Positions 2,660 to 46,100 of a stretch of 64,000 nt of DNA are shown here, piece by piece. A program made the position numbers and the translations under genes. Source of the DNA: Minisyncoccota bacterium (GTDB lineage: Bacteria; Patescibacteriota; Patescibacteriia; Patescibacteriales; UBA12465); assembly GCA_021734405.1 (NCBI GenBank), contig JAIPJA010000002.1, positions 1,145 to 65,144 of the forward strand. Reading direction: 5' to 3'. Positions within the stretch are counted from its first letter, which is position 1; each line of letters opens with the position of its first letter. The notes below the pieces were generated by a model. It was not told the origin of the DNA. It saw only the letters and a list, made by a program, of their open reading frames with translations, and made no database searches.

Positions 2660-4795
2660 TTATTTACTGACTTTATATAATCTCAAACTATTGGCAACCA
2701 CAGATACGCTAGAGAGACTCATAGCCACAGCAGCTATCATCGGGCTAACTAAACCAAAGATGGCTAAAGGAATGGTTATGATATTATAGATAAAAGCCCA
2801 GAATAGATTTTGTTTAATTATTTTGAAAGTTTTTTTAGATAATTTAATAGCGGAATATATTTTTTCTACTTGGCTGTTTATGATAATTATTTGTCCCGAC
2901 TCCTTAGCAATATCTGTCCCAGAGCCCATAGCAATACCTAGGTCGGCTTTAACTAAAGCTGGGGCATCATTTATGCCATCACCAATAAAGATAATTTTTT
3001 TACCTTGACTTTGTAAGTCACTGATGACTTGAAGTTTTTCTGCTGGCATTAATTCAGCTTTAAAATCATTTAACTTTAATTTATTAGCCACTTCTTGAGT
3101 GGCACTTTTATTGTCCCCACTTAGAAGTAGGGTTTTAAGTCCTAGACCTTTAATTTTCTCTATAGTTTCTTGAGCTTTTCCTTTAATTTCATCTTTTAAA
3201 GTGATAGCACCGATTATTTTTTTATCCTGAGCTACAAAAAGAATATTTTTTCCGGTTTCTGTTTCTTCAATTTCTTTTAGCCACTCATCGCTGATATTGT
3301 GCTTAGCCATTAATTTTTTATTACCAAGATACAGGGTGTTTTTATGATCTTGGCATTGACCAAAGATGCCTAAGCCTGGCTCTTCTTTAAAGTTAATAAT
3401 ACTAGCCAGGGGCAGAGTTGTTTCAGCTTGATAATTACTTAAAGCTTGAGAAAGCGGGTGATTGGAGTTTATAGCTAAAGACTGTGCAATTTTTAATATT
3501 TGATTTTTATCTATATTAGAGTCAAAATGGCTTAATATTTTTTGTACACTAATTTTACCAGTAGTTAAAGTCCCGGTTTTATCAAAGATAACAGTGTCTA
3601 TATTTTTAGCTAATTCAAAACTCTCTCCATTTTTTATCAGTATCCCTTGTTTAGCGCCTATGCCGGTTCCTACCATAATAGCTAAAGGCGTAGCTAGACC
3701 TAAAGCACAAGGGCAGGCAATGACTAAAATAGTTACTGCTCTGATAATAGCCATAGAAATTGAGCCACTAACAAAAAATAAACTTATAGCTGTGATTAGA
3801 GCTATAGCAATGATAATTGGTACAAAAACAGAGGATATTTTATCAGCTAGTTTTTGCATGGGTGCTTTAAATTTCTGAGTTTCTTCAACCACTTTAATTA
3901 TTTGGGATAAAGTTGAGTCTTGGCTATTTTTGCTTACCTCTATAGACAAAGTACCATCAAGATTAATAGTAGCGCCAAAAACCTTTTTCCCAGGCTCTAA
4001 ATTTAAAGGTAAACTTTCTCCAGTTAACATAGACTGATCGACTGTGCTAGTTCCAGAAATTACTTTACCATCTAGGGGAATTTTTTCTCCAGGTTTAACT
4101 AGTATAATTTGTCCTACTTTTACTTCTTCAATTTTTACATCTTTAGATTTATCTCCCTCTATAACTCGAGCAGTCTCAGCTTTTAATTCCAGTAGTTTTT
4201 TAATAGCTTGAGAGGCTTTTTGTTTACCTCTACTTTCTAAGTATTTGCCCAGAAGTATTAAAGTGGTAATAGTGGCAGCACTTTCAAAATATAGGTGTTG
4301 ATTATTTAAAAGAGCCCAAAGACTAAAGAAGTAGGCTGAAAGTGTTCCTAGAGAAATTAGGGTATCCATATTGGTTTGTCCTTTTTTAATTAAAAGGAAA
4401 GCGTTTTTATGGAAATTATAGCCTAAGATAAAAACGACTATAAAGCTAAGATGATGTTGTAGCCAAGGATTCATTTCTAAGCCAAACATAATTAATAACA
4501 AGGGCAGGGTAAGGATAGTTGCTAAACTAACCCTTATGAGCGACCAGTTATTTTCTTTTTTGCTTTTATTATTTTCTTCATCCTCTTCACTGATAACTTG
4601 GTAGCCGACTTTTTTCACACTTTGTTTCAACTTATCTAAATCTATTTTTTCAGGATTATACTTTAAGCTAGCTTTTTCACTAGCATAATTTACAGATACG
4701 TCTTTTACGCCATCTAGCTGGCTGAGACTTTTTTCAATATTGAAAGCACAACTACTACAGTGCATACCAGCAATTTTTAAATTTATTTCTTTCAT
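2660..4795 (-). CDS. copA: Copper-translocating P1B-type ATPase
   Basis: N-terminal HMA motif GMHCSSC, CPC motif ([11 protein letters not shown]), phosphorylation site DKTGTLT, hinge GDGINDAP. Confidence 0.9.
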
Positions 4796-4899
4796 ATATA
4801 AAGTGATTATTTGTGTATTAGTTTTTCCGCTTTTTATCTGAGATTTTTTAAATCTATAGCTAATTAGCTAATTTATTTAAGTTTTAACAACTGCAATTT

Positions 4900-6228
4900 T
4901 TAACTTTTAGCTTCAACAATAAATTTTCCCCTGATCATACCCATCCAACAACTAAAATTAATAGTGCCTTCTTTGTTAGGGGTGAATTTTACTATGTTTG
5001 TGCCTTGGGTAAGTTTTTTTCTAATTCCCATACTAGGAACAATAATTTCATTATTACAACCAGTAATTTGTTGACCATTAATAATCCATTTTACTGGTAC
5101 GCCTGACTTTAATTTAATTACGCTGGGAGTATAGCCTCTATAATCAACAATCATATTTACTACCTGCTCATCTTGTGTCTCTTTAGCCTCTACCTTAGCT
5201 TGAGAGCTTAAATTAATATTTACACCTTGCACAGCTAGAGCACTGCTTAAGGTGTAGAGGGCGAAAATAATTATAGCTAGTCCAGCTACTTTCTTAAATA
5301 AGTTTGATTTAATACGCTTAAAACGATTGCTAGCAATGCCTACACCCATTAAAACTGGCAAGGTGCCCAGAGCAAACATAGTCATAATTAAAGCTCCAGA
5401 AATAAAGGAGCCACTAGCCATGGCAAAAATTTGCATTGATTGAGTAAAGCCACAAGGAAGAAAAAAGCTCAGTGCGCCTAAACCTAAAGGTGTCCAGGCT
5501 TTATCTGAGTTTTTTAGCTTTTGCCATTTACGTCCCACCTTTTTATTTAAACCGCCTTTAAAAAGATTAATGGCTGGAGCTAGGTTTAATATATCTAAGG
5601 CTAACCAAATAAGTATTAAAGCGACAATTATTGAAACCCAAGACATGAAAGTAGCAGAGATAGTAAACAAACTGCCAATTACACCCAAGAGTCCCCCTAA
5701 AAGGAAAAAAGCTAGAAGTCTGCCTAAATGAAAAAGACCGTGAGGTTTAATACTACTTTGATAGAAATTACCTTTATTTTCATATTTAGCACTAAAGCTA
5801 ATAACTACAGCCCCTACTACCATTAAACAAGTGCTAAGTGAAGCCACTATTCCTACTATTAGAGCCATGCCATAACTTAAATTTTCTCCAATTATTACTT
5901 CAGGTATTATATTAGTCACAGAGAGAAGTCTGTATAGAAGGTATAGGCTGGTTAAAATTAAAAGAGTGAGCCCCCATTGTTTAAGGTTAATTTTCTGGTT
6001 AGCTTTGACTGGTTTTTTATTATTATCAATTTCATAGCCTAACTTTTCAATAACAGCTTTTATTTTTTTGGAATTTATTTTAGAGCTATCATATTTAGCC
6101 GTACATTGACCCGTTTTGTAGTCTACTCTAATATCCTTAATACCTGCTAGTATTTCTACTTCAGATTCAATTAAGGTTTTACAGCTAATACAGCTAGTAC
6201 CTTTGATTTTAAAGCTTATTTTTTCCAT
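4900..6228 (-). CDS. Fusion protein: HMA metal-binding domain, polytopic permease core (TauE/DsbD-like) and a C-terminal cupredoxin-like domain
   Basis: N-terminal GTSCISC motif, about 8 hydrophobic helices, and a C-terminal block ...KLKSGVPVKWII...FSCWMGMIRGKFIV typical of cupredoxin-like domains. Sits between csoR and copA. Confidence 0.7.
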   Translation of the reverse strand: MEKISFKIKGTSCISCKTLIESEVEILAGIKDIRVDYKTGQCTAKYDSSKINSKKIKAVIEKLGYEIDNNKKPVKANQKINLKQWGLTLLILTSLYLLYRLLSVTNIIPEVIIGENLSYGMALIVGIVASLSTCLMVVGAVVISFSAKYENKGNFYQSSIKPHGLFHLGRLLAFFLLGGLLGVIGSLFTISATFMSWVSIIVALILIWLALDILNLAPAINLFKGGLNKKVGRKWQKLKNSDKAWTPLGLGALSFFLPCGFTQSMQIFAMASGSFISGALIMTMFALGTLPVLMGVGIASNRFKRIKSNLFKKVAGLAIIIFALYTLSSALAVQGVNINLSSQAKVEAKETQDEQVVNMIVDYRGYTPSVIKLKSGVPVKWIINGQQITGCNNEIIVPSMGIRKKLTQGTNIVKFTPNKEGTINFSCWMGMIRGKFIVEAKS

Positions 6229-6262
6229 ATATTTAAAAAGACTTTAGTATAAATTATTAATT

Positions 6263-6544
6263 TTATTTATTATATAACTTGGTGACTTGTAAAATTTCTT
6301 TAGTCATTTTATCTTTTTGTTTTTCATTACTGCTTTTCATGGCTCTGGAAAAACAAGTTTTTATGTGATTTTCCATGAGTTGAGCATGGGCGGATTTTAG
6401 AAGTCCTAGGGCAGCTAAGTTTTGTTGCATAACATCAATACAGTAATCTTGTCTTTCCATCATCTCTGTTATTTTATAAATTAAGGAATGGGCCTTTTTA
6501 AGAGTAGTAAGGGTTTTTTTATACTCTAAACTATTTTTGTTCAT
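6263..6544 (-). CDS. csoR: CsoR/RcnR-family metal-sensing transcriptional repressor
   Basis: 93 aa, with the ligand pattern C35-x24-H60-x3-C64 of Cu(I)-sensing CsoR. First gene of the copper operon. Confidence 0.85.
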   Translation of the reverse strand: MNKNSLEYKKTLTTLKKAHSLIYKITEMMERQDYCIDVMQQNLAALGLLKSAHAQLMENHIKTCFSRAMKSSNEKQKDKMTKEILQVTKLYNK

Positions 6545-6585
6545 ATTTTTTAGATAAGTATTTTTTAATATAAATTATATATTTA

Positions 6586-6604
6586 ATACCTGGGGGGTAG
6601 GTAT
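6586..6604 (-). promoter_or_regulatory. Candidate CsoR operator: G-tract flanked by inverted ATACCT/AGGTAT arms
   Basis: ATACCTGGGGGGTAGGTAT lies about 42-60 nt upstream of the csoR start codon. The architecture matches the known CsoR operator type. Confidence 0.6.
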
Positions 6605-6653
6605 ATATAATTTAGCATTTATTTTAAAAGCTAGCAAATTAAATGGAAATATT

Positions 6654-6662
6654 TGCTATAAT
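6654..6662 (+). promoter_or_regulatory. Extended -10 promoter element TGCTATAAT for the metallophosphoesterase gene
   Basis: TGCTATAAT lies 41 nt upstream of the ATG at 6704. The same 9-mer recurs upstream of several other genes. Confidence 0.5.
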
Positions 6663-6703
6663 TTGCTAAAATACAAAAGTATTATTTAGTAATATATTTT
6701 CTT

Positions 6704-7771
6704 ATGTTTTATACAGTAGTTTCTTTTATGCTTTTATTTCTATTTATAGCCTTGGGCATCTTTTTAGCAGGGAACTTAATAATTACAGCTTTTTCCCTGG
6801 TTTCCAGAAATAAAAAGCTTTTTGTTTATTTATTAGTTTGCCTAAGTGTTTTTTTCTTTATTATTAGCTTGCCTTTAATAAATACTTATTCTAGTACTTT
6901 AGCTATTTTATTTCACATAATTGCAGCGCTCCTTCTGGGCTTAAGTTCTCAGTTAATGCTTTTTGGCTTGTTATTTTATCTTATAAGTTTTTTTAAATTT
7001 AAAAAGAAACTTCTAGCTAAAATTGCTTTAGGTTTATCTTTAATATTTTTCCTTTTAGGGCTATATAATGCTTTTTATCCTAGAGTTAAAACTATTGTTT
7101 TAGATGATTGGCTAAAGGAGAATAAGGTGGTGCATTTATCAGATTTACATTTAGGTTATTTTCACGGTGTTAAATATTTAGATCGTGTAGTTAAAAAAGT
7201 TAATAGTTTAGAAGCTGATGTTGTAATTATCAGTGGTGATTTATTTGATGGTAATGATAAAGATATAGCTAAATTTATAGAGTCTTTAAGTAAATTTAAA
7301 AATCCAACTATTTTTGTCTATGGTAACCATGATGTTTATTTATCTGATGAGTCGGTAGGCTCAGTTATTTCTCAAGCAGGCTTAATGGCTTTAAGCGATG
7401 AGGCTAGGGTAATAAATGATTTAGAGATTATAGGCTTTGACTATTTAAGTCGTGAAGATAGTAATATTAGAAGAAAAATTGATAATTTATTAGTAGAAAA
7501 AACCTATCCTCGCATAGTAGTTAATCATGTTCCAGTTGATAGAGCTGAGGCCAAAGCTTTAGAGGCTAATTTAATGTTGTCTGGCCATGCCCATAGAGGG
7601 CAAATTTTTCCACTTTCGCTGATTGTTAGGCTTATGTATGGCAAGTATTCATATGGGCTAGAAAATTATGAAGGTATGTCAACTTACACTAGTGCCGGTA
7701 CAGGCACTTGGGGGCCGCCTCTTAGAACTTTATTTCCTGGAGAGATTATTTTCTTTCAGGGAATTAAATAA
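6704..7771 (+). CDS. Membrane-anchored calcineurin-like metallophosphoesterase
   Basis: N-terminal TM helices followed by the motifs HLSDLHLG, GDLFDG, GNHD and GHAHRG. Confidence 0.8.
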   Translation: MFYTVVSFMLLFLFIALGIFLAGNLIITAFSLVSRNKKLFVYLLVCLSVFFFIISLPLINTYSSTLAILFHIIAALLLGLSSQLMLFGLLFYLISFFKFKKKLLAKIALGLSLIFFLLGLYNAFYPRVKTIVLDDWLKENKVVHLSDLHLGYFHGVKYLDRVVKKVNSLEADVVIISGDLFDGNDKDIAKFIESLSKFKNPTIFVYGNHDVYLSDESVGSVISQAGLMALSDEARVINDLEIIGFDYLSREDSNIRRKIDNLLVEKTYPRIVVNHVPVDRAEAKALEANLMLSGHAHRGQIFPLSLIVRLMYGKYSYGLENYEGMSTYTSAGTGTWGPPLRTLFPGEIIFFQGIK

Positions 7772-34269: not shown

Positions 34270-36528
34270 ATGAATTATAAGTATTATTTGCGTATTTTAC
34301 AGGTAGGAAGTTGCTTGGCTGTGTTAAGTTTATTATTGTTTTTTTCTAACATCTTTTTTCCTTTTATTGGTTCAAAGCAGTTAACTTTTAACATTATTGT
34401 GGAAATTTTAAGTGCTGTTTCTTTAGTTTTTTTAATTAAATATCCTCAGTTTAGACCAAAATTTAATTTAATAAGTTATTTTTTGTTAGCTTATTTAGGA
34501 GCAATTTTAGTTTCTACTTTTTTTAGTTCAGATTTTCTAATTAGCTTCTTTAGTAATGCTGAGAGAATGTTTAGTTTTTGGCAGATTTTACATTTAGTTT
34601 TATTTTACTTTATTTTACAGATCTCTTTTAGAAGCTGGCAGGAGTGGCGGTGGTTGTTTTTAAGCTCTTTGGCTGTGGCTTTTATTATGAGTGTTTATAG
34701 TTTTTACAATCTTAAGCCGGGATCTTTATTAGGTAATGAGGCTTATTTTGCCGCTTTTTTAATTTTCAACCTTTATTTTGCTTTAATTTTTATAGTTAAA
34801 GATTATAAACCTTATAAATGGGTTTATTTAGCTTTTTGGGCTTTTTTCATTCCTGCTTTTGTCGCTGCTGATATTACTGGGGCATTTATAGGTTTAGGGG
34901 CTAGTTTATTTATAGGCCTTATTTTAGTAGCTGTTTTTTATAAAAACAAGCTGTTGAAGTTAAGCTCAATTATTTTGTCAGTTTTAATTGTAGCCATTAT
35001 TGCCTTATCTTTTAGTTTTCCCCAAGCTTCTTTTGTGAAGAACAATAAGGTTTTAAGGCAAATTTCTTGGCAAAAAAACACTTTTCAAACCAGACTTTTA
35101 TCTTGGCAAGCAGCTTGGCAAGGTTTTTCAGATAACCCCGTAGTTGGGGTTGGTTTTGGTAATTTCACCCCCACCTTTGATAAATATTTTGAGGCTGAGT
35201 TTTATAACCATGCACCTAATGAAACTCGCTTTGATAGAGTGCATAATAATCTGCTAGAAGTTTTAGTTACTACTGGGCTTTTGGGAATTATTCCTTATTT
35301 AGCTATTTTTGTTCTTATCTTTATCTATTGGCTGAAGTTATTTATTTATTATAAGAAAAATTATCCTGGTTTTCTACGTTCTTCTTTATCTTTAGTTTTG
35401 TTAGTTATATTATCTGCTTTCGGTGCTTACTTTATCCAAAACTTAAGTATTTTTGACACCTTATCGGTGTTTATGGCTTTTATGATTTTATTAGCTTATT
35501 TTAACCATATAAAAGCTAATAAAGAGCAGTTTTTACCTCAGGAAAAAAATTATAAATATAAAGAGCTGGAAGCAGAAGCTAAAAGAAAACAAGTTGACTG
35601 GTTGCTTATTCCTTTGCTACTGATATTTTTAGCTATAGCTTATTGGTTTAATGTTAGACCTATGCAGTCTTTTGTTATGGGCATTTCAGGTTATAAACAA
35701 ATTTTAGCTGGACAAATTGTGCCTGGTCTAGAGACTTACAAGCAAGGTTTAAAAATAAAACATCCTTTTCAAAGAGACATGTATTATGCTGTTACTTTCT
35801 TAGCCGCTCAAGACACTCAGGGGTTATTTAATGGTTTAAGCCAAGAGGAAAAAATAAATTCTTTAGAGACTTTATTAAACTTTAATGCTGAACTTTTAGA
35901 AATATCTCCTGAAAACAATGCCTACTTCTTAAATCGAGCTTATTTATATAATAAATTAGCTTCTGTCTATAGTGAGGACAATGATAATTACCAAAAATAC
36001 ATGAGGTTAGCTCTAGAGAATGTAGACAAGGCTATTTTAACTAGTCCTAATAGAGTTGATACTTATTGGCTTAAAGGACAGTTGCTTATAAACTTAGGAG
36101 AAAAAGAGCAAGGTTTAGAAAATTTTCTTCAGGCTATTAGTTTAAATCCTGACTATAGCAAATCATATTGTCAAGCTAACCAAGCCTATTTAGTGGTTGA
36201 TAAAAAAGAAGAGGCCTGGCCATTTATGGATAAATGCTTAGAAAAAGGCGGCGTTTCTTATTTAAACAATAGCCCCATTTTAGCTTTAGCTGTTAATCAT
36301 TATATTGAGCAAGAAAATCATGAAAAAACCGCTCAAGTCTATGAGCGTTATGCTAAAATTAACCCCAGTCAAGAAAATTGGATGAATTTAGCTAAACTTC
36401 AAGCTACTTTAAGTAATTGGGAAAAAGCTGAAAAATATGCTTTAAAAGCTTTAGAGTTAACCCCGGAGTCAGATAAAGAATCAGTTGAGTTATTTTTAAA
36501 GATTGTTAGAAGTAAGCAAGTTCAGTAA
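34270..36528 (+). CDS. O-antigen ligase/polymerase-like polytopic membrane protein with a C-terminal TPR domain
   Basis: About 12 TM helices with a Wzy_C-like loop (NPVVGVGFGNF...HNNLLEVL), then TPR-like repeats across the last ~300 aa. Confidence 0.7.
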   Translation: MNYKYYLRILQVGSCLAVLSLLLFFSNIFFPFIGSKQLTFNIIVEILSAVSLVFLIKYPQFRPKFNLISYFLLAYLGAILVSTFFSSDFLISFFSNAERMFSFWQILHLVLFYFILQISFRSWQEWRWLFLSSLAVAFIMSVYSFYNLKPGSLLGNEAYFAAFLIFNLYFALIFIVKDYKPYKWVYLAFWAFFIPAFVAADITGAFIGLGASLFIGLILVAVFYKNKLLKLSSIILSVLIVAIIALSFSFPQASFVKNNKVLRQISWQKNTFQTRLLSWQAAWQGFSDNPVVGVGFGNFTPTFDKYFEAEFYNHAPNETRFDRVHNNLLEVLVTTGLLGIIPYLAIFVLIFIYWLKLFIYYKKNYPGFLRSSLSLVLLVILSAFGAYFIQNLSIFDTLSVFMAFMILLAYFNHIKANKEQFLPQEKNYKYKELEAEAKRKQVDWLLIPLLLIFLAIAYWFNVRPMQSFVMGISGYKQILAGQIVPGLETYKQGLKIKHPFQRDMYYAVTFLAAQDTQGLFNGLSQEEKINSLETLLNFNAELLEISPENNAYFLNRAYLYNKLASVYSEDNDNYQKYMRLALENVDKAILTSPNRVDTYWLKGQLLINLGEKEQGLENFLQAISLNPDYSKSYCQANQAYLVVDKKEEAWPFMDKCLEKGGVSYLNNSPILALAVNHYIEQENHEKTAQVYERYAKINPSQENWMNLAKLQATLSNWEKAEKYALKALELTPESDKESVELFLKIVRSKQVQ

Positions 36529-36550
36529 GGCTTTTATTTTTTATTTTCTT

Positions 36551-36559
36551 TGCTATAAT
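36551..36559 (+). promoter_or_regulatory. Extended -10 element TGCTATAAT
   Basis: Exact TGCTATAAT upstream of the gene starting at 36632. Confidence 0.45.
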
Positions 36560-36631
36560 AAACAAATAGTTAAAGGTATTTAATAATTAACAAATAATAG
36601 TAAATAATTAATAAAATTAATCAATAATCTT

Positions 36632-36913
36632 ATGAGTTTAGAATCACAAAAATTTACACCAGAAACCGGAAATGAAGAAATTAAGAAGATTGAGGCATAT
36701 ATGTCTGATGTAGAAAATTATATTATTAGTCTTGGTTTTACGATAGAAGCTAATAAAGACCAAATTAAGGAAGCATTAGAAATTTTAATTAGTCAGCACG
36801 AAGATCCTGAGCAAGCCACTGCTATTTTAAAGCAATTAATTTCTTTTCTTGAACCTGGTGATAGTTTAGCAGGTAGTGTTAATATGATGAAAGAAGATCC
36901 TGCTGATTTTTAA
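36632..36913 (+). CDS. Small acidic hypothetical protein
   Basis: 93-aa ORF with no motif recognised. Confidence 0.45.
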   Translation: MSLESQKFTPETGNEEIKKIEAYMSDVENYIISLGFTIEANKDQIKEALEILISQHEDPEQATAILKQLISFLEPGDSLAGSVNMMKEDPADF

Positions 36914-36928
36914 TAATTTTTTGTTTTT

Positions 36929-37831
36929 ATGTCTATAAAAAGCAAACATCATCCAGCAAAATTTACTTTTCTATACCTTCTATCTTTAGCTTCACTAGTT
37001 ATGGTGGCTTTGGGGGTAGGTATGATTGTATTTGAGTTTATCAACAAATATGTGCCGGACTTTTTAAGTTATTCTTATCAGGGTAATTTTTCTGATGCTC
37101 AAGTTAAATTTGCTTTTTCAGCTCTGTTAATTTCTGCCCCCATATACTTTGTTTGTTCTTATTTTCTGGAAAAGAATTTAAAGAAGGGAAATTTAAGTTT
37201 ATCAGCTTCACTTAGAAAATGGTTACTATATCTAATTATATTTACAGCTTCAGTGGTTATTATGGGCTGGTTAATAGGGCTATTAAATAATTTTTTAGAT
37301 GGTGAGTTAAGTCTTAGATTTGCTTTAAAGGCTTTGACTGCTATTGTTATTTCAGCTTTAGTTCTAAGTTTCTATATTTTTGAAATTAAAAGAACGCAAA
37401 CCCAAATAACCCCTTTAAGCTTTAAGATTTATGGAATTATATTTATAGCAGTAACTTTAACAGCTTTAGTTTTAAGCCTACTTATCATGGAGTCACCTCA
37501 GAAAGCACGTCAAAACAAGTTAGATAATTTAATTTTAAATAATTTCAATCAGATATCTATAGCTGTAGATAGTTATTACAGCGAAAAAGGAGAGTTACCA
37601 GACAGCTTAGAAGCGCTTGATCAGAAGTTTTTAGGTCCTAAGCAATTACTGGACCCACAAACTCAGGAACCTTTTGGTTATAGGGTTATAGATAAAGATA
37701 GTTATGAGCTGTGTGCTAACTTTAGAACTAATACTGAAAATGATGCTGATAGTTTAAGATTTAACTATAGAGATGAACATAAGGCTGGCTGGCAGTGTTT
37801 AGAAAGAGAAGTAGTGCCCATGAAACCTTAA
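36929..37831 (+). CDS. Four-TM membrane protein (DUF5671-like) with a pilin/pseudopilin-like C-terminal domain
   Basis: TM pattern plus a C-terminal block ...IAVDSYYSEKGELPDSLEAL...DPQTQEPFGYRV...YELCANF resembling type IV pilin-like globular domains. Confidence 0.5.
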   Translation: MSIKSKHHPAKFTFLYLLSLASLVMVALGVGMIVFEFINKYVPDFLSYSYQGNFSDAQVKFAFSALLISAPIYFVCSYFLEKNLKKGNLSLSASLRKWLLYLIIFTASVVIMGWLIGLLNNFLDGELSLRFALKALTAIVISALVLSFYIFEIKRTQTQITPLSFKIYGIIFIAVTLTALVLSLLIMESPQKARQNKLDNLILNNFNQISIAVDSYYSEKGELPDSLEALDQKFLGPKQLLDPQTQEPFGYRVIDKDSYELCANFRTNTENDADSLRFNYRDEHKAGWQCLEREVVPMKP

Positions 37832-37880
37832 AAAATTAAAAAAAGCTGAATTTTTTCAGCTTTTTTTTATTTCTATATTT

Positions 37881-39173
37881 ATGAAAATAACTAATAAAGT
37901 AACTATTTTAATATTTTTAATAATCTTAATTTCTGCTGGCTTTTTTTATTTTAAAAATATCCAGGCTGAAGATAATGAGGAAAAACTAGGTGAGGCAGAG
38001 ACAGTCTTAGAAAGTGAAAATGATGAAAACAAGACTCCAAAAGACATTGTTCAAATTATACAAGTAGAAGATGGTCAAACTTATGGCGAGCTCATGAAAA
38101 GCTCAGGTATATCAGTTAGTCTGGCTAATGAAATTTATGAGTCTTCTTTAGAAACCTATGATTTAGCTAGTTTAAGAGCTGGTAAAGAAATTAAATTGTT
38201 TTTTGATCCAGGGAGCAAAGAATTAAAAAGTTTGCTCTACAGTATTGATTCTGAGTCTGAGTTAGTGGTAAAAAATTTAAATTATTTTCCAACTGTAGCA
38301 GATTTAAAGGCTTCTAGCACTGAGGAAGTTGAAGTAAAGGAAAATATTTGGCAGGCAGAAGTTAAAGCCATTGATTATGAAGTAAAGGTAGTTGAAAAAG
38401 AAGGTGAGCTAGCGTCTAGTCTATATAACTGGGCACTGGAAAATAATGTTGATGAAAGAGCGATTATAGAGATGGCTAATGCTTTTCAATGGAGTTTAGA
38501 TTTCGCCATGGATCCTCGCGTTGGTGATACTTTCAAGTTTATTTATGAAGAAAGATATTTAAATGGTAATTATATTATGCCTGGCCAGCTTCTAGCTGCT
38601 AAATATGTTAATGAGGGGGAAAACTATGAAGTATATTATTTTGAAGAAAGTGAAGATAATAAAGGCTATTTTGACAGAGAAGGAAACTCTGTGCAAAAAA
38701 TGTTTTTGAAAGCCCCGGTAGCTTTTAAATATATTTCTTCAGGCTTTACTACAGGACTAAGATATATTAGCGCTTTTAATATTTCTACTGGTCATAGAGC
38801 CATTGACTACGCAGCCGCTTATGGCACCCCTATAAGGACTGTAGGCGATGGAACGGTAGTTATGGCTAAATATAATGGTTCTTATGGCAATATGGTTTCT
38901 GTTAGACACAATGGAACTTATAGTACCAACTATGGCCATATGTCAAAGTTTGCTGTTAGCTACGGAGAAAAAGCAAAACAAGGAGATATTATTGGTTATA
39001 TAGGTTCAACAGGACTTTCTACTGGACCTCATCTTCATTATGAAATGGTTAAAAATGGAGTTAAAATTAATCCTCTTTTAGAGGTACTACCTCCAGGTGA
39101 ACCTATTAAAGAGGAAAACAAAGAAAGATTTTTTGAAAGCATTAAGTCTTGGCAAGAGAAGTTAAATAACTAA
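37881..39173 (+). CDS. M23-family metallopeptidase (peptidoglycan endopeptidase)
   Basis: HRAIDYAA and GSTGLSTGPHLHYE motifs, with an N-terminal TM anchor. Confidence 0.85.
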   Translation: MKITNKVTILIFLIILISAGFFYFKNIQAEDNEEKLGEAETVLESENDENKTPKDIVQIIQVEDGQTYGELMKSSGISVSLANEIYESSLETYDLASLRAGKEIKLFFDPGSKELKSLLYSIDSESELVVKNLNYFPTVADLKASSTEEVEVKENIWQAEVKAIDYEVKVVEKEGELASSLYNWALENNVDERAIIEMANAFQWSLDFAMDPRVGDTFKFIYEERYLNGNYIMPGQLLAAKYVNEGENYEVYYFEESEDNKGYFDREGNSVQKMFLKAPVAFKYISSGFTTGLRYISAFNISTGHRAIDYAAAYGTPIRTVGDGTVVMAKYNGSYGNMVSVRHNGTYSTNYGHMSKFAVSYGEKAKQGDIIGYIGSTGLSTGPHLHYEMVKNGVKINPLLEVLPPGEPIKEENKERFFESIKSWQEKLNN

Positions 39174-39324
39174 ATATATTTTAAATTTTGTTTATAAGGC
39201 TACTCATAAGTTAGCTTGTTAGTCAGAGTCTTATAAATCTTCCGATAATGTACATTATTTGTTATTATTAAAGTATAAAGTTTAGATAAAAACTAGTTAT
39301 ACGCAATTCAAAAAATATTTTTCT

Positions 39325-39539
39325 AACGGAGAATAAGGAATGATAGGCTTTCAAAGAGGAATAAATTTGATTTTTTCTAAAAAAAGGAGGGGGATAATAT
39401 GGTGTTTTCTCCACTTCTTTCCGAAAACGATTTATTTATAAATTGAAAAAGGTAACAAAACTTATATAATACAAATAACTTTTAATTTATTATGGAGGAT
39501 TTAATGACTCAGAAAAATTTATTAAAAAAAGAAAAGATA
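39325..39539 (+). repeat. Copy A of a ~170-215-bp repeat covering the cassette leader plus the first ~16 codons
   Basis: Aligns with 40270-40441, apart from a ~28-nt and a ~12-nt insertion in copy A. Includes AACGGAGAATAAGGA, ATGATAGGCTTTC, hairpin 39404-39428 and AACTTTTAATTTATTATGGAGGAT. Confidence 0.85.
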
Positions 39540-40262
39540 AAGGCTTTCTCTATAAAAATATCAAAAAAACTTAATCATAGTATTTGGTTGAAACTTCTGG
39601 TTTTTATTCTACTTTTCATTTTCTTGGTTATAGTGTCCACATTATATCAACCAATTGCTGAGCTAGGCGGAAGGCTCTTTGAACCCATCTCTCTCAAAAC
39701 TTTCTTGGATACATTGACTCCTCCAGAAATGTACACTTTTTTACCATATCTAATCGTTCTCCTATTTGTTCCATTTTCAGGAATATTTTTTGCCTTTAAT
39801 CGTAGAATTAGCGTGGTTCAAGTCATTTCGTTTTATCTTGCCATTATATGTATGTGGCTGATTGCTTTGGCAATTTATATTGTTTTTCCGACAACTGCTT
39901 CGGAAGTTATGATTACTTCATATGACGAATACGCAGCATATTATTTGATATATGAAGGAGCATTCCAAACACTGCAAAACTTATATGGAGCGAGTACTCC
40001 TCTTGGAGATTTTCCTAGTCTACATGTAGCACCACTTATGTTGATGGGTATTTTCCTTCGCAAACATTGGAAGACATTGTTTTGGATATTCTTACCTATC
40101 GCATTTATTGGTGCGACTGGAACATATTTATTGAAATTTCACACGGTTATAGGATTTTTAGGCGGAGTAGCACTGGGATATTTTGGTTATTATGTCTTGT
40201 ACGAAAAAGTCGTTCATAAGTATCTCAGTAAATTTTTTATAGAAAAGGAAAGCCTATCATAA
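39492..40262 (+). CDS. Polytopic membrane protein, PAP2_3-like (FPSLH motif), with a borrowed N-terminus
   Basis: 256 aa with DFPSLHVAP and a degenerate distal H motif. The first 19 aa (MEDLMTQKNLLKKEKIKAF) are nearly identical to those of the next, unrelated gene. Confidence 0.6.
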   Translation: MEDLMTQKNLLKKEKIKAFSIKISKKLNHSIWLKLLVFILLFIFLVIVSTLYQPIAELGGRLFEPISLKTFLDTLTPPEMYTFLPYLIVLLFVPFSGIFFAFNRRISVVQVISFYLAIICMWLIALAIYIVFPTTASEVMITSYDEYAAYYLIYEGAFQTLQNLYGASTPLGDFPSLHVAPLMLMGIFLRKHWKTLFWIFLPIAFIGATGTYLLKFHTVIGFLGGVALGYFGYYVLYEKVVHKYLSKFFIEKESLS

Positions 40263-40297
40263 GAGTTAGAACGAAAAATAAGGAATGATAGGCTTTC
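40248..40297. repeat. Complete boundary site: 13-bp inverted arms GAAAGCCTATCAT / ATGATAGGCTTTC separated by 24 nt
   Basis: Left arm 40248-40260 (encodes the last codons and stop of the upstream gene), right arm 40285-40297. A right arm alone lies at 39340-39352 and a left arm alone at 41618-41630. Confidence 0.85.
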
Positions 40298-40441
40298 AGA
40301 GTGGAATATAATGGTGTTTTCTCCACTCCGTTCCGAAAACAATTTGTTTTTTAAAGACAAAACTTATATAAGAATTATAACTTTTAATTTATTATGGAGG
40401 ATTCAATGACTCAGGAAAAATTATTAAAAAAAGAAAAGATA
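40270..40441 (+). repeat. Copy B of the leader/N-terminus repeat
   Basis: See copy A. Contains hairpin 40316-40340. Confidence 0.85.
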
Positions 40442-41533
40442 CTCGCATTTGATTATCTTAGAACCTTTGTAATTATTCTTGTAGTTTTACATCATGCAAT
40501 TTTAGCATATGTGACATTTATTGATTATTCTGGGGAGTATCTTGTTGCAGATATTGTTCCATCTACCAATTTATTAAATCCAATATTTGATACTGCAAAA
40601 TCTTGGGTTTTTGATATAATTCTTACAATAAATGACCAGTATTTCATGAGTTTGCTATTCCTCTTATCTGGATTGTTTATATATAATAGCTACGAAAGAA
40701 AAGGAACAAAGAAATTCTTTAAGGATAGATTTGTAAGATTAGGGGTTCCTTTTTTACTTTTTGTACCAACAATAATTCCTATTGCTTATTATTTTGCACA
40801 TTTGCAATGGTCAATAAATGGAAATACTGCCCTAAGCTTTTTCGGTTTTTGGTTAGAATATGCTAAAGCTGGTTTTTTTGCATCAGGTCCTCTTTGGTTT
40901 TTATGGGTACTTCTTTTATTTAACCTTATAGTAGTTTTATTATTCTTCAGACCTAAAATAGAAAATAGAATAAAAAATTTAAAAATATTCGAACATCCAG
41001 TATATCTTTTTATAGCCTTATTGTTAATTTCCACTATATCGTTTTTTCCATTATTGTTGATCTTTGGAGGTTCATGGATCGGTGTTGGTCCATTTACTGT
41101 TCAAGGCTCTAGAGTATTGCATTATTTTATTTTCTTTTTATTTGGGACATTTTTAGGAATGTATGGTCTTGAAAAAACTATGTTCAAACCAAATTCAAGT
41201 TTCACAAAATTTTGGTGGATTTATTTAATTATTGGTTTAATCTCTTTTCTATTCTTTTTCCCACTATCTTGTGTATCTCTTAGTTTTGCTACAATAGGAT
41301 TTTTCCTGCGTTATACTAAAAAAAGAAATTTATTAATGGATAGTTTGAATAAAAATGCTTTCGGAATTTATATTTTTCATTATATGTTTATAGCAGGACT
41401 ACAATTTATTTTACTCGGAATCAATATATCAGCAATTACTAAAGGTATTATAGTCTTTTTTGGAGCCTTAGTTTTGAGTTGGGGCTTCAGTTCTGTATTT
41501 CGCAAAATCCCTATAGTCGGAAGAATAATATAA
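40394..41533 (+). CDS. Acyltransferase family 3 (OafA/YrhL-like) membrane protein
   Basis: 379 aa with about 10 TM helices and the N-terminal signature FDYLRTFVIILVVLHH. Confidence 0.8.
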   Translation: MEDSMTQEKLLKKEKILAFDYLRTFVIILVVLHHAILAYVTFIDYSGEYLVADIVPSTNLLNPIFDTAKSWVFDIILTINDQYFMSLLFLLSGLFIYNSYERKGTKKFFKDRFVRLGVPFLLFVPTIIPIAYYFAHLQWSINGNTALSFFGFWLEYAKAGFFASGPLWFLWVLLLFNLIVVLLFFRPKIENRIKNLKIFEHPVYLFIALLLISTISFFPLLLIFGGSWIGVGPFTVQGSRVLHYFIFFLFGTFLGMYGLEKTMFKPNSSFTKFWWIYLIIGLISFLFFFPLSCVSLSFATIGFFLRYTKKRNLLMDSLNKNAFGIYIFHYMFIAGLQFILLGINISAITKGIIVFFGALVLSWGFSSVFRKIPIVGRII

Positions 41534-41540
41534 CTTTCAA

Positions 41541-41589
41541 GTTTTGAAAAATGAAATTCACCCCTAACCCCTCTTTCATTTTTCAAAAC
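41541..41589. repeat. Perfect 16-bp inverted repeat hairpin with a C-rich 17-nt loop
   Basis: GTTTTGAAAAATGAAA (41541-41556) pairs with TTTCATTTTTCAAAAC (41574-41589). The loop is TTCACCCCTAACCCCTC. No T-run follows on either strand. Confidence 0.8.
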
Positions 41590-41715
41590 GAAAAAAATCA
41601 AATTTATAAGAATTGAAGAAAGCCTATCATGAGAATTAAGAACGAAAAATATTTTTTGAACTCACTCCGCTACGCTTCGTGCCACGCTGCGCTCTCCTCC
41701 TTTCAGTCGTCGGGG

Positions 41716-41817
41716 CGTATAACAAGGGATATACGGTTCAGCCCTCGGCTCGGGCTTCACTCAAATTTTTCTTCCACTTCGTTCCAGAAAAACTTCGTAT
41801 ATCCCTAACGTTATATT
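41716..41817 (+). repeat. attC-like site 1: R''-L'' ... L'-R' imperfect inverted repeat, about 100 bp
   Basis: CGTATAAC-A-AGGGATATACG (41716-41735) pairs with CGTATATCCCT-AAC-GTTATA (41796-41815). This gives a 6-bp R pair (TATAAC/GTTATA), an asymmetric 1x3 internal loop and an 11-bp L pair. Confidence 0.6.
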
Positions 41818-41871
41818 AAATTACAAGGGTAGGCCAATAACTTTATATATTTTATAATTTTTTAATTTATT

Positions 41872-42531
41872 ATGATTGAAGCATTAATATTTGATATGGA
41901 TGGTGTTTTAGTAAAATCTGAAGGTGCTATTTCTACATCATTTAATAAAGTGCTAGAAAAATACGGTGTAAAACTTAACCCAGAAAACAAGAAAAAATAT
42001 CTAGGGCGTTCGTTAAGAGATCAATTACAGATGATGAAAGAAGAATATCCTCAAATACCAAAAGAATTAAACATTCAACAATTTAGCAAAGAAGCGTTTC
42101 AATATCAACTAGAATTATTAAAAGAAGAGCTAGTACCTAAAATTTTAATAAAAGAATTCATTAAAAAAGCTAAAGAGAACAATATAAAAATTGCAGTAGC
42201 AACTTCAAGTTTAAGATATAGAGCAGAAATATTCTTAAAATTAATCGATATTTTTAATGAACTAGATATATTGCTAACCTCAGAAGAGGTTAGCAATCAT
42301 AAACCACATCCAGATATTTTTCTAGAAACCGCAAAAAGATTAGAGGTTTTACCTGATAACTGTGTAGTAATTGAAGATGCAAAAAATGGAATTGATGGCG
42401 CTCAAGCTGCAAAAATGAAAACTATAGGAGTAATCACAGAGAACCGTTCTATAGAGGAATTAAAACATGCTGATTTGATAGTTAATAGTCTCACAGAATT
42501 AAATATTGAAAAAATTAAAAAATTATTCTAA
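41872..42531 (+). CDS. HAD-superfamily hydrolase (beta-phosphoglucomutase/phosphatase-like)
   Basis: Motif I FDMDGVLV, motif II ATSS, and a C-terminal EDAKNGIDGAQAAKM. Confidence 0.8.
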   Translation: MIEALIFDMDGVLVKSEGAISTSFNKVLEKYGVKLNPENKKKYLGRSLRDQLQMMKEEYPQIPKELNIQQFSKEAFQYQLELLKEELVPKILIKEFIKKAKENNIKIAVATSSLRYRAEIFLKLIDIFNELDILLTSEEVSNHKPHPDIFLETAKRLEVLPDNCVVIEDAKNGIDGAQAAKMKTIGVITENRSIEELKHADLIVNSLTELNIEKIKKLF

Positions 42532-42603
42532 TCTAAAGGTCGACCCTTGTAAATCTGAAATTTCCCTTCGGGACGTTGCACTAAATTTCAGCCCTGAGGG
42601 GAA

Positions 42604-42696
42604 TATAACAAGGATTATGAGGTTACGAAGTCTTGCAGACTTCTCCACCCAAATTGCTCCCTACGGTCGCAACTTCTCATATCCCTGACGTTATCT
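42604..42696 (+). repeat. attC-like site 2, homologous to site 1
   Basis: TATAAC-A-AGGATTATGAG (42604-42621) pairs with CTCATATCCCT-GAC-GTTAT (42676-42694). The upstream TTTCAG...GGGG block is shared with site 1. Confidence 0.6.
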
Positions 42697-42728
42697 GAAA
42701 TCCATTTTTTAACTTTTTAAATAACACT

Positions 42729-42890
42729 ATGAGCAAAACAATAAAAATCTCATTGCTTATTATCGCTGGCTTGTTAGTACTTAACGGATTAATAAACATT
42801 TCTGATAATGGAAGTATTTTAGCTTATGACATTACCGCTATTTTATCTGGGATTGGATTTACTATTGTTGCTTTATCTAAGAAAGCATAA
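42729..42890 (+). CDS. Possible 53-aa two-TM membrane peptide (last cassette)
   Basis: MSKTIKISLLIIAGLLVLNGLINISDNGSILAYDITAILSGIGFTIVALSKKA. Below the track cutoff. Begins 35 nt after attC-like site 2. Confidence 0.4.
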   Translation: MSKTIKISLLIIAGLLVLNGLINISDNGSILAYDITAILSGIGFTIVALSKKA

Positions 42891-43141
42891 AAGTTTAATA
42901 TCATTATTAGTGTATATATAAGTTTTGAGTCTTTTCGATATTCTTCCTAAGTTTCAAAATCCCACCCTTTATAAAGATAAAGCAGGTGGTTTTTTTAATT
43001 CAACTAAATTAATCCATGTTTAAAGCCTATTAAAGCTTTTTTTGTATATAGCAATATTTTTTTTAATTTGTAAACTAGTTTTTAATTGTTGCTTTTGGTA
43101 TTATGATAGTAAAGAGATGCTAAAAAATATTTAAATTAATT

Positions 43142-46100
43142 ATGAGCTTTGTCCACCTCCACAATCATACCCACTATTCTTTACTTGATGGCTTAACTAA
43201 GATACCTGAGTTAGTAAAAAGAGCTAAAGAGCAGGGCTCCCCAGCTGTGGCTATTACTGATCACGGTAATATGTACGGGGTTATTGACTTTTATCAAACC
43301 TGTAAAAAGGAAGGCATTAAACCCATTATAGGGGTAGAGGCTTATTTAGCTAGAGGCAGTCGTTTTGATAAGGCTACTAGAGATGATGCTAGAAACTATC
43401 ATTTAGTGCTTTTAGCGAAAAATAATACTGGTTACAAAAACCTTATTAAACTAACCACTAAAGCGCATTTAGAAGGTTTTTATTACAAACCTAGAATAGA
43501 TTGGGAAATTTTAAAAGAACATAGTGAAGGTTTAATTGCTATGAGTGCTTGTTTGGGTGGAGAAATGGCTCAACTAATTAGATCTGGAAACTTAGAAACA
43601 GTTAAAAAAAGAGCTTTAGAGTATAAAGAGTTGTTTGGTGAAGATAATTTCTATTTAGAATTAATGGATCATCCTCAACTTGAAGGCCAAGCTGAAATTA
43701 ATGAAACTTTAATCAAATTAGGTAAAGAGCTAAAAATACCACTAGTAGCTACTAATGATATTCATTATTTAAAAACTGAAGATGATGAAGCTCAGGATAT
43801 ATTACTTTGTTTGCAAAATAAAAAGAAAAGAAACGATAGTGATCGCATGAGCATGTTAGGGGAAGATTATTCTATGAAGAGTAATCAAAAGATGGTGGAG
43901 GTTTTTTCTCATGTACCTGAGGCTATAGAAAATACTGTAAAAATAGCAGAAAAATGTAATGTAGAAATTGAATTAGGTAAAACCCAATTACCTTATTTTG
44001 AGGTGCCAAGTGACTATAATGAAAATTCATATTTACGTTACCTTTGCGAAGAAGGACTTAAGAAAAGATTTGCCTGTGACTATAATAGCGCTACTCAAGA
44101 GCTAAAAGAAAGAATGGATTATGAATTAAAGGTTATAGAGAAAATGGGTTGGCCTTCCTACTTTTTAATTGTGGCTGATTTTGTTAATTGGGCCAAGGAC
44201 AATAAAATAGTGGTAGGTCCAGGCAGAGGTAGTGCGGCCGGTTCTTTAGTTTGTTATTTAACTGGTATTACTAATATTGACCCTTTGCATTATGATTTGC
44301 TATTTGAAAGATTTTTAAATCCAGAAAGAGTTTCCATGCCTGATATTGATATGGACTTTGCCGATACTAGAAGAGATGAAGTTATTCAATATGTAGCTGA
44401 TAAATATGGCCATGATAGAGTGGCGCAAATAATTACTTTTGGAACTATGGCGGCTAGAGCGGCTGTTAGAGATGTAGGTAGAGTTCTAGATGTGCCTTAT
44501 GAGTTTTGTGATAAACTTTCCAAGGCTATTCCGATGTTTTCCAAAATTAAAGAAGCTTTAAAAATAGTTCCAGAGTTAAAAGAAGCTTATGACAATGACT
44601 CTCAAGCTAGACAAATTTTAGACTACGCTATGCGTTTAGAGGGTGTTTCCAGACATAGCTCCACCCATGCTTGCGGGGTACTTATAACCAAAGATGCTTT
44701 AGATGAGCATGTGCCACTTCAATATGCTTCTTCTTCAGATAAAAGTATTGTTTCTCAATATTCCCTACATCCAGTAGAAGACTTAGGGCTTTTGAAGATG
44801 GATTTTTTAGGTTTAAAAAACTTAACCATTATTGAGTCAGCTTTGAGGATTATAAAAAACACTAGAGGAGAAGACATTGATATTGAAAGTATACCTTTAA
44901 ATGATGAGTTAGCTTATAACTTATTTCAAGAAGGTAATACTACTGGAGTTTTTCAATTTGAGTCCTCAGGCATGAAAAGATATTTACGAGAGTTAAAGCC
45001 TAGTGAATTTGAAGATATTATTGCTATGGTAGCGCTATATCGTCCCGGTCCTATGGAGTGGATTCCTGACTATATTTCTGGTAAGCATGGACAGAAAAAA
45101 GTTTCTTACCTTCATCCTAAGCTAGAGCATATATTAGACAAAACTTACGGAGTAGCTATTTATCAAGAGCAAGTTATGCAAATTGCTCGAGATTTAGCTG
45201 GTTTTACTATGGGCGAGGCTGATGTGCTTAGAAAAGCCATGGGTAAAAAGATTCCTGAGCTTTTAGCTAAGCAAAAAGAAAAATTTGTTGAAGGTTGTGT
45301 TAAAAATCAAATTCATAGTGAGTTGGCAGAGAAAATATTTTCATTTATTGAACCTTTCGCTGGTTATGGTTTTAACCGTAGTCATGCCGCTTGTTATGCT
45401 TTAATTGGTTATCAAACCGCCTATTTAAAAGCTCACTGGCCAGTGGAGTTTATGGCGGCGTTACTGACAGCTGATCAACACAACACTGATAGAATAGCGG
45501 TAGAAATAGATGAATGTAGAAAAATGCAGATAAATATTATGCCTCCAGATATTAATGAGTCTTATGATTCTTTTACAGTCGTAACCAGTGGTACTACTGA
45601 AAACAAATTAGCCAAAAAAGATGAAAAAGTAGATACTATTCGCTTTGGTTTAAATGCTATAAAAAACGTAGGTGAGCATATTGTAGATGTTATTATTGAA
45701 GAAAGAAAAAAGAATGGCAGGTATAAGGATATTTATGAATTTTTAGAAAGAATAACTGATAAAGATTTAAATAAAAAGTCTTTGGAAAGCTTAATTAAAT
45801 GTGGAGGTTTAGATAATTATGGTGATAGAGGTCAACTTTTATATAATTTAGAAACCTTATTAAAAATTAATAAAGAGTCTGCTCAAGAAAAAGCTAGTGG
45901 TCAAACTAGTTTATTTGGATCTGAAAATGGTTTTCAAATTAAAGCTCAACCTATTAAATTAGCTAATGGAGGTGAGCTTAGCCAAGCAGAAAAATTAAGC
46001 TGGGAAAAAGAGCTTTTAGGTCTATATATCTCTGAGCATCCTTTTTCTGAATTTAAGGAAAAACTAAATGGCTATATAGTTAGTCTGAGTCAATTAAAAG

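Follow-up and report, generated by a model that had tools for sequence, protein, structure and literature searches.

Two adjacent genes in a 64,000-nucleotide stretch of contig JAIPJA010000002.1 from a Minisyncoccota bacterium encode membrane proteins of unrelated families, PAP2_3 and acyltransferase-3, and begin with nearly the same leader and the same N-terminal codons. The whole stretch is called the window here; coordinates refer to it, and features lie on its plus strand unless stated otherwise. The locus raises the question of which gene borrowed its start, by what route, and whether a dedicated system for plugging genes behind one leader was at work. The explanation we favour, and consider probable, makes the PAP2 gene the recipient: the two genes would share one fused cassette, in which a second copy of the leader, placed ahead of the PAP2 gene by recombination at short homologies, would have made its expression autonomous.

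A leader repeated at the start of two genes

The two leader copies are termed L1 (39325-39539, the long form, including codons up to ...KEKI) and L2 (40270-40441, the short form, running through acyltransferase codon 16). They are identical at 154 of 172 aligned positions (89.5%) in a gapped global alignment, and match each other inside the window with a blastn E-value of 3.8e-35. Two indels, of 33 nt and 10 nt, separate them, with the extra sequence in copy 1 both times; a repeat search returns the direct repeat as three ungapped blocks of 85 nt (92%), 56 nt (82%) and 51 nt (82%). As a preliminary description of this DNA had reported, the repeat crosses the start codons of two adjacent, same-strand open reading frames (ORFs). 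A 23-nt start-region pattern occurs exactly twice in the 64 kb, and shuffled sequences lead one to expect none. The same description counted 19 shared codons, a figure that has to be lowered to 16, or to 12 from the probable start. The DNA repeat stops after codon 16 (GATA); codons 1-16 are common to both genes, with 13 identical, codon 17 is wholly different (AAG vs CTC), and alanine 18 and phenylalanine 19 are encoded differently (GCT/GCA and TTC/TTT). The "AF" match between the two proteins at this point is a coincidence.

An independent Logan assembly (L005; related loci are numbered from L001) is identical over the locus, and independent assemblies from five samples reproduce the repeat structure. 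Because of this identity, and because contigs from other samples carry the PAP2-fused leader (remnants of it in L034), the repeat is not an assembly artefact. An nhmmer profile of the leader, L, found no further copy elsewhere in the 64-kb window or in other loci; the copies found number only seven over about 230 kb of window and related loci.

L1 includes the arm ATGATAGGCTTTC (39340-39352), a hairpin GTTTTC..GAAAAC (39404-39428), a predicted promoter-like TTGAAA-16-TATAAT (39443-39470) that is the best sigma-70-like match in the region (11/12), a GGAGG (39494-39498), and two ATG codons, ATG1 at 39492 and ATG2 at 39504. Behind it, gene 1 is a chimeric PAP2_3-family ORF of 39504-40262 from its probable start, ATG2 (longest ORF 39492-40262, 256 aa, MEDLMTQKNLLKKEKIKAF...). 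It matches Pfam model PF14378 at 32.5 bits, against a gathering cut-off of 27, over aa 82-234, with the module (aa 1-20) outside the domain. Gene 2, the acyltransferase-3 ORF, spans 40406-41533 from its probable start, ATG2 at 40406 (longest ORF 40394-41533, 379 aa, MEDSMTQEKLLKKEKILAF...), and matches PF01757 (Acyl_transf_3) at 113.2 bits, against a cut-off of 31, over aa 17-365 and profile positions 2-324. The family-model check that had been proposed for the locus thus places PAP2_3 homology clear of the module and starts Acyl_transf_3 homology at aa 17. Beyond the N-terminus, blastp found no relatedness between the two proteins.

Both copies contain ATGGAGGATTYAATG, with GGAGG overlapping the first ATG and lying 5 nt ahead of the second. 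Two gene callers chose the MTQ start (P0001, P0077, P0199; P0077, called from MTQ, is 100% identical to the window acyltransferase), and NCBI puts the start of gene 1 at MEDL (MCF7819976.1). Judged by these signals, translation of both genes likely starts at the second ATG, a position within the repeat and not downstream of it.

Counted from MTQ, the shared peptide consists of 12 residues, MTQ(K/E)(N/K)LLKKEKI, hydrophilic and basic. Signal peptide and transmembrane tests found no hydrophobic h-region or transmembrane segment within the shared segment; the first hydrophobic windows come at aa 26 in gene 1 and aa 14-19 in gene 2, and the hydrophobic residues all follow the shared part. The composition points to a Lys-rich cytoplasmic tail, not a targeting signal. 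The membrane-targeting unit of the preliminary description is therefore not supported: the 12-16 residues in common are hydrophilic and rich in Lys, the hydrophobic segment begins after them in both proteins, and the short-chain dehydrogenase/reductase (SDR) that stands behind the same leader in a related genome is a soluble-type enzyme without the shared peptide. The 17-aa module is too short for protein-database detection, even perfect matches earning 7-13 bits in local phmmer searches (E > 1e4 at a size of 5.8 billion proteins).

Donor and recipient of the shared start

Most homologues of the PAP2 protein start at what is an internal position of the window protein. Among 16 PAP2 homologues inspected, 14 begin MKISKKLNHSIW or a close variant, aligning to window residue 21, and only P0001 carries the module; the match starts at query residue 20 or 21 in 12 of 18 JGI loci. 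The native start, MKISKK... in almost all PAP2 homologues, can still be read together with the old 5' untranslated region (UTR) directly after the repeat, as AAGGCTTTCTCTATAAAAATATC in the window versus CAGGCTTTCCTTATGAAAATATC in L002. At the DNA level, the window has AAGGCTTTCTCTATAAAAATATCAAAAAAAC just past the repeat, with ATG changed to ATA, and L002, L014 and L027 (84-88% identical genes) have (C/T)AG(G/A)(C/T)TTTC(C/T)(T/C)(T/C)ATGAAAATATCAAAAAA in the same place. This relic (AAGGCTTTCTCT ATA) occupies 39540-39554, with its ATA at 39552-39554. At the native start codon, the window and L001 have ATA, L016 and L031 have ATC, and L002, L014, L027 and L010 have ATG. The chimera residues "KAF" are translated old UTR, and the only in-frame ATG codons upstream of the dead native start are those within L1. 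Since the native 5'UTR and start of the PAP2 gene survive as a relic, this gene is the recipient.

On the acyltransferase side, the module joins K(K/E)(K/N)ILAFDYLR without a break, and this segment is common to more distant acyltransferases despite their differing N-termini. The coding part of the module is, by this continuity, of acyltransferase type. Two earlier proposals hold up on this evidence, namely that gene 1 acquired a foreign 5' module, its native start relic following the repeat, and that the K-rich segment followed by FDYLR is native to acyltransferase-3 proteins. The leader cannot be traced along the acyltransferase gene, because the upstream DNA is unrelated in relatives 53-63% identical (L006, L007, L015). 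L028 was considered as a further carrier of the module, its match extending from query residue 3, yet its N-terminus is its own and unrelated.

The L1-PAP2 fusion is also found in L001 (Logan, 91% protein identity), L016 (JGI, 90%) and L031 (JGI). Four independent metagenome contigs of the clade with at least 90% PAP2 identity carry the chimera, and a fifth (L034) has lost L1. L1 is absent from L002-4, L014, L027 and L017, and relatives at 84-88% identity are without the chimera. Across the sequences compared, the chimera is thus shown to be fixed in a Paceibacteria clade at PAP2 identity of at least 90%. Several substitutions notwithstanding, all four lineages keep the frame from ATG2 into the PAP2 gene open. 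A search of genome contigs with the exact start-region DNA pattern gave one chance match, inside a Bacteroidetes ORF, and JGI metagenomes gave none; the pattern is too strict, since L016 and L031, both found later by PAP2 protein alignment, differ from it at ACTCAG.

Sequence comparison shows L1 and L2 to be paralogous. The long form occurs in every L1, the short form in both L2 copies, and the leader of the distant L006 is again of the long form. Given that L1 is always long and L2 short, the split between them is older than the divergence of these genomes, and L2 lost its 33 and 10 nt after the split. L1 of L001 and L2 of L016 have one 7-nt variant in common.

The slot after the PAP2 gene is unstable in close relatives, the acyltransferase having been replaced once (L016) and deleted twice (L001, L034). 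In L016, an L2 that is about 90% identical over its first 70 nt and then diverges precedes an SDR oxidoreductase gene in the acyltransferase slot. The same 3' motif, GGAGTTTTGAAAAATGAAATTCACCCCTAACCC, follows, and its loop holds an inserted element of the IS110 family of insertion sequences (ISs), at L016 ~4752-6130, with an RNA-guided transposase (NCBIfam, 204 bits) and a structured 5' region of about 280 nt. L001 lost the acyltransferase between two GTYTTTT repeats, with the last ~75 nt remaining. All that is left of it in L034 is L2 and MTQEKLL, the first 7-8 codons, and the PAP2 gene of this contig, without L1, uses a third ATG within the relic of the upstream palindrome (MHIPLLYAIQKKLNHSIW). 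Its N-terminus, MHIPLLYAIQKK..., a third type, is built from that relic. In the same contig (5574-5661, ~5826-5853 and 6001-6900), the PAP2 gene adjoins a tRNA-Ser gene with a repeated tRNA 3' end; no tRNA gene was found in the window. The more distant L006 has an L-type leader ahead of an unrelated 120-aa gene. What the preliminary description said of different genes behind one expression unit stands in a weaker sense for the non-coding leader, found before the SDR gene (L016) and the 120-aa gene (L006), and fails for the shared coding part, found only in PAP2 and acyltransferase genes. In the L002-like L017 (718-2354), the cassette after the PAP2 gene carries a restriction-modification pair as cargo, a Dam-like DNA methyltransferase (DPPY) and a Cys-rich putative nuclease.

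Candidate attC sites and the cassette around both genes

Integron cassette arrays without a nearby integrase are known as CALIN, attC-site clusters that have no integron-integrase (Cury et al. 2016, PMC4889954). An attC site was taken as an imperfect palindrome of ~55-150 nt with inner core RYYYAAC and outer core GTTRRRY, and a CALIN as at least two attC on one strand with no intI within 4 kb. The plus strand of the window has two strong candidate attC sites, b1 and b2, and one weak candidate (41534-41599). Comparison with related contigs shows 39297-41810 to be, as far as its candidate attC sites allow it to be classed, one integron-type cassette that holds both genes in a two-site, CALIN-like array.

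The cassette starts at G|TTATACGCAATTC, with the palindrome AAAAATATTTTT behind it (39311-39322); this feature spans 39296-39322, and the proposed crossover lies at 39296/39297. Homology with L016, L031 and L010 begins exactly at GTTATACGC; leftward of this point, the four contexts have unrelated DNA. At the other end lies b1 (41665-41816), with GCGTATAAC at 41715-41723 and GTTATAT at 41810-41816; it scores 112.7 bits with covariance model R1, is 79% identical to L016 2660-2810 and has a fold z-score of -3.3. The cassette start TTATACGC (39297-) is complementary to GCGTATAAC in b1, which argues that the PAP2 and acyltransferase genes form one integron-type cassette. The array continues with a second cassette (41811-42696), which has a 5'UTR that is colinear with L's 3' half, an HAD phosphatase gene (41872-42531) and site b2 (42594-42702, attC-like, with AATATAAC at 42602-42609 and GTTATCT at 42690-42696). 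Its start, TTATATT (41811-), is complementary to AATATAAC of b2. A 53-aa gene follows before dnaE.

A short palindrome (41527-41592, stems 41542-41556 and 41574-41588) lies right after the acyltransferase stop, preceded by AATATAAC. It folds at -15 kcal/mol (z = -5.8) and scores weakly with R1 (15.6 bits, E = 0.44, 41534-41599), and the same 16-mer is found behind genes in L001, L016 and L006. It may be the decayed attC-like site of the acyltransferase cassette itself.

Sites b1 and b2 are GC-richer intergenic palindromes of one family, captured by model R1, and this family shows cassette behavior in other contigs. L009 and L010 have one R1-family site after nearly every gene, six sites each and all on the same strand; further sites occur at L016 1928-2081, 2704-2817 and 6218-6370. 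AAC/GTT is invariant in 5/5 aligned sites, and the stems show some compensatory changes. Relative to L010, L009 has 1344 nt more, which hold two whole genes flanked by copies of a single 65-nt site, and the rest is 99.5% identical; the cores of this site (L010 1155-1223) read GCCTAAC...GTTAGGC exactly. In seven of eight cassettes, the first seven bases after G|TT find their exact complement in the inner core of the cassette's own 3' site and not in that of the upstream site. The pairs include TTAGGCG/CGCCTAAC, TTAGCTG/CAGCTAAC, TTATGTG/CACATAAC, TTAGACG/CGTCTAAC and, in L016, TTATGTGT/ACACATAAC; the exception is the L010 PAP2 cassette, TTATACG versus CATCTAAC. Upstream of the same PAP2 cassette, and divergent from it, tyrosine recombinases are encoded in L016 (878-1726, minus strand) and L031 (1-~495, minus strand, about 135 nt from the cassette start). 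The two differ, being 39-45% identical, and the L016 enzyme best matches TIGR02249 (220.8 bits, below the 265 cut-off) and VchIntIA (2a3v).

These sites also suggest what L is. L aligns colinearly to b1 plus the HAD-cassette 5'UTR up to the ATG, with a local score of 54 against 20.7±3.3 for shuffles, a level that 0 of 300 reach. Three elements are common: a 5' part, ATAA(C/G)-AAGG-A-ATA-GG-TT-C; a hairpin, TTTTCT(T)CC...GAAAA, with compensatory variants among b sites; and an AT-rich stretch with promoter-like hexamers ending TTTTAATTTATTATG. L has mutated AAC/GTT cores and lacks the 3' arm, and is therefore taken as a decayed b-type site fused to the acyltransferase-cassette 5'UTR. We infer that it would comprise an AT-decayed b1-family site, this 5'UTR and the first codons of the acyltransferase cassette.

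Where the PAP2 gene meets L2, a junction hairpin (40248-40297) joins GAAAGCCTATCAT, the last PAP2 codons and stop, through a 24-nt loop to ATGATAGGCTTTC at the start of L2. Its RNA fold has an energy of -17.6 kcal/mol (z = -4.6), and its 13-mer occurs four times exactly in the window: the PAP2 3' coding end (ESLS*; 40248-40260 and 41618-41630) and the leader arm (39340-39352 and 40285-40297) show perfect 13-nt complementarity. In L002, the native 5'UTR of the PAP2 gene is complementary to the gene's own 3' end as well. The hairpin was rejected as an attC site or intrinsic terminator, because its GTT lies in the loop and is not conserved in L001 or L016, and a T-run is absent. The 13-bp inverted repeats were rejected as transposon ends, there being no target duplication and one arm being PAP2 coding sequence, and AAAAATATTTTT as a crossover site, only half of it being kept at junction 2.

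Origin of the chimera, rival accounts and known systems

The PAP2 and acyltransferase genes would once have been separate neighbouring cassettes, fused when the intervening site decayed. The second leader copy, L1, would have come from illegitimate recombination at short homologies. At its left junction, TTAGA is common to the source and the PAP2 native UTR (TTTAGATAC); at its right junction, AGATA(C) stands where acyltransferase codons 16/17 meet the PAP2 5'UTR. By one route, a copy of about 215 nt would have been inserted by template switching. By the other, the PAP2-acyltransferase pair would have been tandemly duplicated and then trimmed by short-homology deletions, one of which would have fused acyltransferase codon 16 to the PAP2 5'UTR. 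A relic favours this duplication-and-deletion history: T2 (41600-41651), recognized by local alignment with 40231-40280, repeats, in decayed form, the final 33 nt of the PAP2 gene with its 3' flank, ends in AACGAAAAATA and forms a second PAP2 3' end. Its peptide reads KFIRIEESLS* versus KFFIEKESLS* in PAP2, and it sits between the acyltransferase gene and b1; in L002 and L010, the PAP2 gene is followed directly by a T2-type flank and then by a palindromic site. L001 and L034 offer direct examples of deletion between short A/T-rich repeats. Microhomology-mediated duplication and deletion is the most likely origin, not a dedicated plug-in system, and all events seen fit short-homology deletion or duplication together with homologous exchange between paralogous leaders.

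L1 would give the PAP2 gene its own promoter, Shine-Dalgarno (SD) sequence and start, and with these its expression would, on sequence evidence, be freed from upstream read-through, a gain of relevance in arrays whose distal cassettes are poorly transcribed. The protein would have gained a Lys-rich cytoplasmic extension of 16-20 residues, with topology expected to be unchanged, much like the native MKISKK N-terminus, and the native ATG, then dispensable, would have been free to mutate to ATA or ATC. Both enzymes are envelope-related and encoded beside Wzy_C, glycosyltransferase, RmlD and Mur-ligase genes, which makes common control plausible.

Three other accounts were weighed against the fusion and short-homology origin. 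The first, which develops the idea of the preliminary description, is a purpose-built portable 5' module, with genes swapped by site-specific or homology-guided recombination at L on the 5' side and at motif TTTTGAAAAATGAAATTCACCCC on the 3' side. L or L-like leaders do stand ahead of four unrelated genes (PAP2, acyltransferase, the SDR of L016 and the 120-aa gene of L006), the SDR fills the exact acyltransferase slot between L2 and the same 3' motif, that 16-nt motif is unchanged in a genome where acyltransferase identity is only 56%, and the 7-nt variant common to L001 L1 and L016 L2 suggests exchange between copies. However, L occurs only seven times over ~230 kb, with no further copy in the 64 kb, has no intact AAC/GTT cores and no dedicated enzyme associated with it; its coding part is common to PAP2 and acyltransferase only; and the L016 leader diverges inside the 3' half of L2, as ordinary homologous recombination predicts. 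A dedicated module of this kind is accordingly unlikely.

Smaller still is the chance we give to a cis-regulatory role of L, as an RNA leader resembling an attenuator or riboswitch whose duplication would place two envelope enzymes under one signal. Its attraction is the small hairpin GTTTTC-13 nt-GAAAAC, kept in all L copies, with b-type equivalents that show compensatory changes (TTTTGC/GCAAAA in L016, TTCTGT/ACAGAA in L010). That hairpin, however, lies upstream of the predicted promoter and recurs within recombination-type palindromes, in which it could equally well act at the DNA level, and Rfam 15 gave no match at gathering thresholds in the window or at E <= 1 in 39100-43200. Next to no weight is left for a shared N-terminus normal in both families, or for a repeat produced by chimeric assembly, both already refuted. 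Many membrane-protein N-termini have a Lys-rich character in common, and only that; PAP2 homologues are without the segment (MTQEKLLKKEKI), acyltransferase homologues have other N-termini, and the independent assemblies from five samples speak against an assembly chimera.

Several points weigh against the fused-cassette explanation itself. The junction microhomologies measure only 5-6 nt and are partly mutated in the window, and copy insertion and duplication with deletions both fit. The promoter, SD sequence and start are predictions, and the downstream TTG at codon 33 may be an alternative PAP2 start. The L-b1 homology is modest (about 60-70%, gapped) and comes from one genome family, and the 13-nt complementarity of PAP2 3' end and leader arm is left unexplained by the proposed model. 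As for the cassette setting, b1 (GTATAAC/GTTATAT) and b2 (ATATAAC/GTTATCT) are off RYYYAAC/GTTRRRY at one position per core, no tyrosine recombinase was found in the 64-kb window, and the L016 recombinase is without the IntI-specific insert, residues 190-241 of 2a3v having no counterpart. This additional domain of IntI comprises ~35 residues near patch III (PMC4889954, PMC9668308).

The array resembles CALIN in having one imperfect palindrome per gene in a single orientation, with AAC/GTT cores (GCCTAAC/GTTAGGC in L010), cassette first bases complementary to the inner core of their own site, and whole-cassette presence or absence between near-identical contigs; the window itself has two candidate sites and no recombinase. 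Unlike CALIN, the recombinases neighbouring the cassette in L016 and L031 are IntI-like yet without the IntI-specific insert, and b1-type sites have an internal hairpin that is conserved, as well as a GC-rich 5' extension. The IS110-family element inside the L016 palindrome recalls the IS1111-attC group (PMC11187229).

For the fusion, the closest precedent is Tn1331, with its fused aadA1-blaOXA-9-attC cassette and 520-bp direct repeats (PMC2262945). In both systems, on our reading of the window, two genes came into one cassette through loss of the intervening site, and the direct repeat carries the 5' end of a neighbour gene. In Tn1331, aac(6')-Ib takes the promoter and initial codons of blaTEM from the repeat, a start borrowed in the same manner. 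Here, by contrast, the repeat measures 172-215 nt and would derive partly from a recombination site that has decayed, a mutated relic of the recipient's own start survives, and the genes encode envelope enzymes of an uncultured symbiont, not resistance. Chimeric gene formation by partial tandem duplication and deletion likewise captures an N-terminus and expression signals from an adjacent gene via short homology; unlike the ordinary case, the event took place inside what looks like a mobile cassette, whose donor is repeatedly lost or replaced in sister lineages.

More tentatively, and with rather less than even confidence, we suggest that Paceibacteria, whose genomes measure about 1 Mb and which belong to the Candidate Phyla Radiation (CPR), carry a distinct integron-like system of cassette arrays, with attC-type sites, IntI-related recombinases without the canonical insert, and L leaders as portable promoter and start modules that drive genes and give homology for swap, fusion and deletion. 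If true, this explains the three N-termini of the PAP2 protein and the three states of the slot behind it among genomes at least 90% identical. To our knowledge, complete integrons are not expected in the tiny genomes of CPR bacteria. A search of the accessible literature found no description of integron cassettes in CPR bacteria, which is not proof of novelty.

The chimera shows how a gene can, in a single step, exchange its N-terminus and start codon along with its promoter and ribosome-binding site, with the old start still visible and sister lineages showing the states before and after. This remodelling is instructive but has precedent; the more novel lead is the apparent cassette array in a CPR genome, where site decay, fusion, deletion at short homologies and IS110 insertion reshape the cassettes. 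If confirmed, it would offer a concrete mechanism for envelope-gene turnover in CPR symbionts, together with directly testable sites and recombinases.

The far end of the array has a mark of its own. The stretch 39287-39385, which takes in the left flank, the cassette start and the first 60 nt of L, recurs as an inverted and decayed copy on the minus strand at 42990-43084, 71% identical over 100 nt (E = 5e-8). This copy stands just upstream of dnaE and includes 9 nt of outside flank, so that the whole array is bracketed by inverted relics. The GC-rich 50-nt extension 5' of b1 (CTCCGCTACGCTTCGTGCCACGCTGCGCTCTCC..., 41665-41714) is kept in L016 (2660-2705), outside the palindrome. An AT-rich stretch of ~40 nt (AAATCTCTCTGCAAAAGAA.A.TAAGGATAAAAAAAAT) just ahead of a palindromic site is shared by L006 (5608-5650) and L016 (2617-2657), which are distant genomes. 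ORFs across the b sites (41629-41808 and 42506-42688) are probably spurious. The array adjoins a cell-envelope cluster (34270-39173; L005 1-8768) that encodes a Mur ligase, an RmlD-like epimerase, a nucleotidyltransferase, a GT2 glycosyltransferase, a Wzy_C/TPR protein, a DUF5671 protein and an M23 peptidase.

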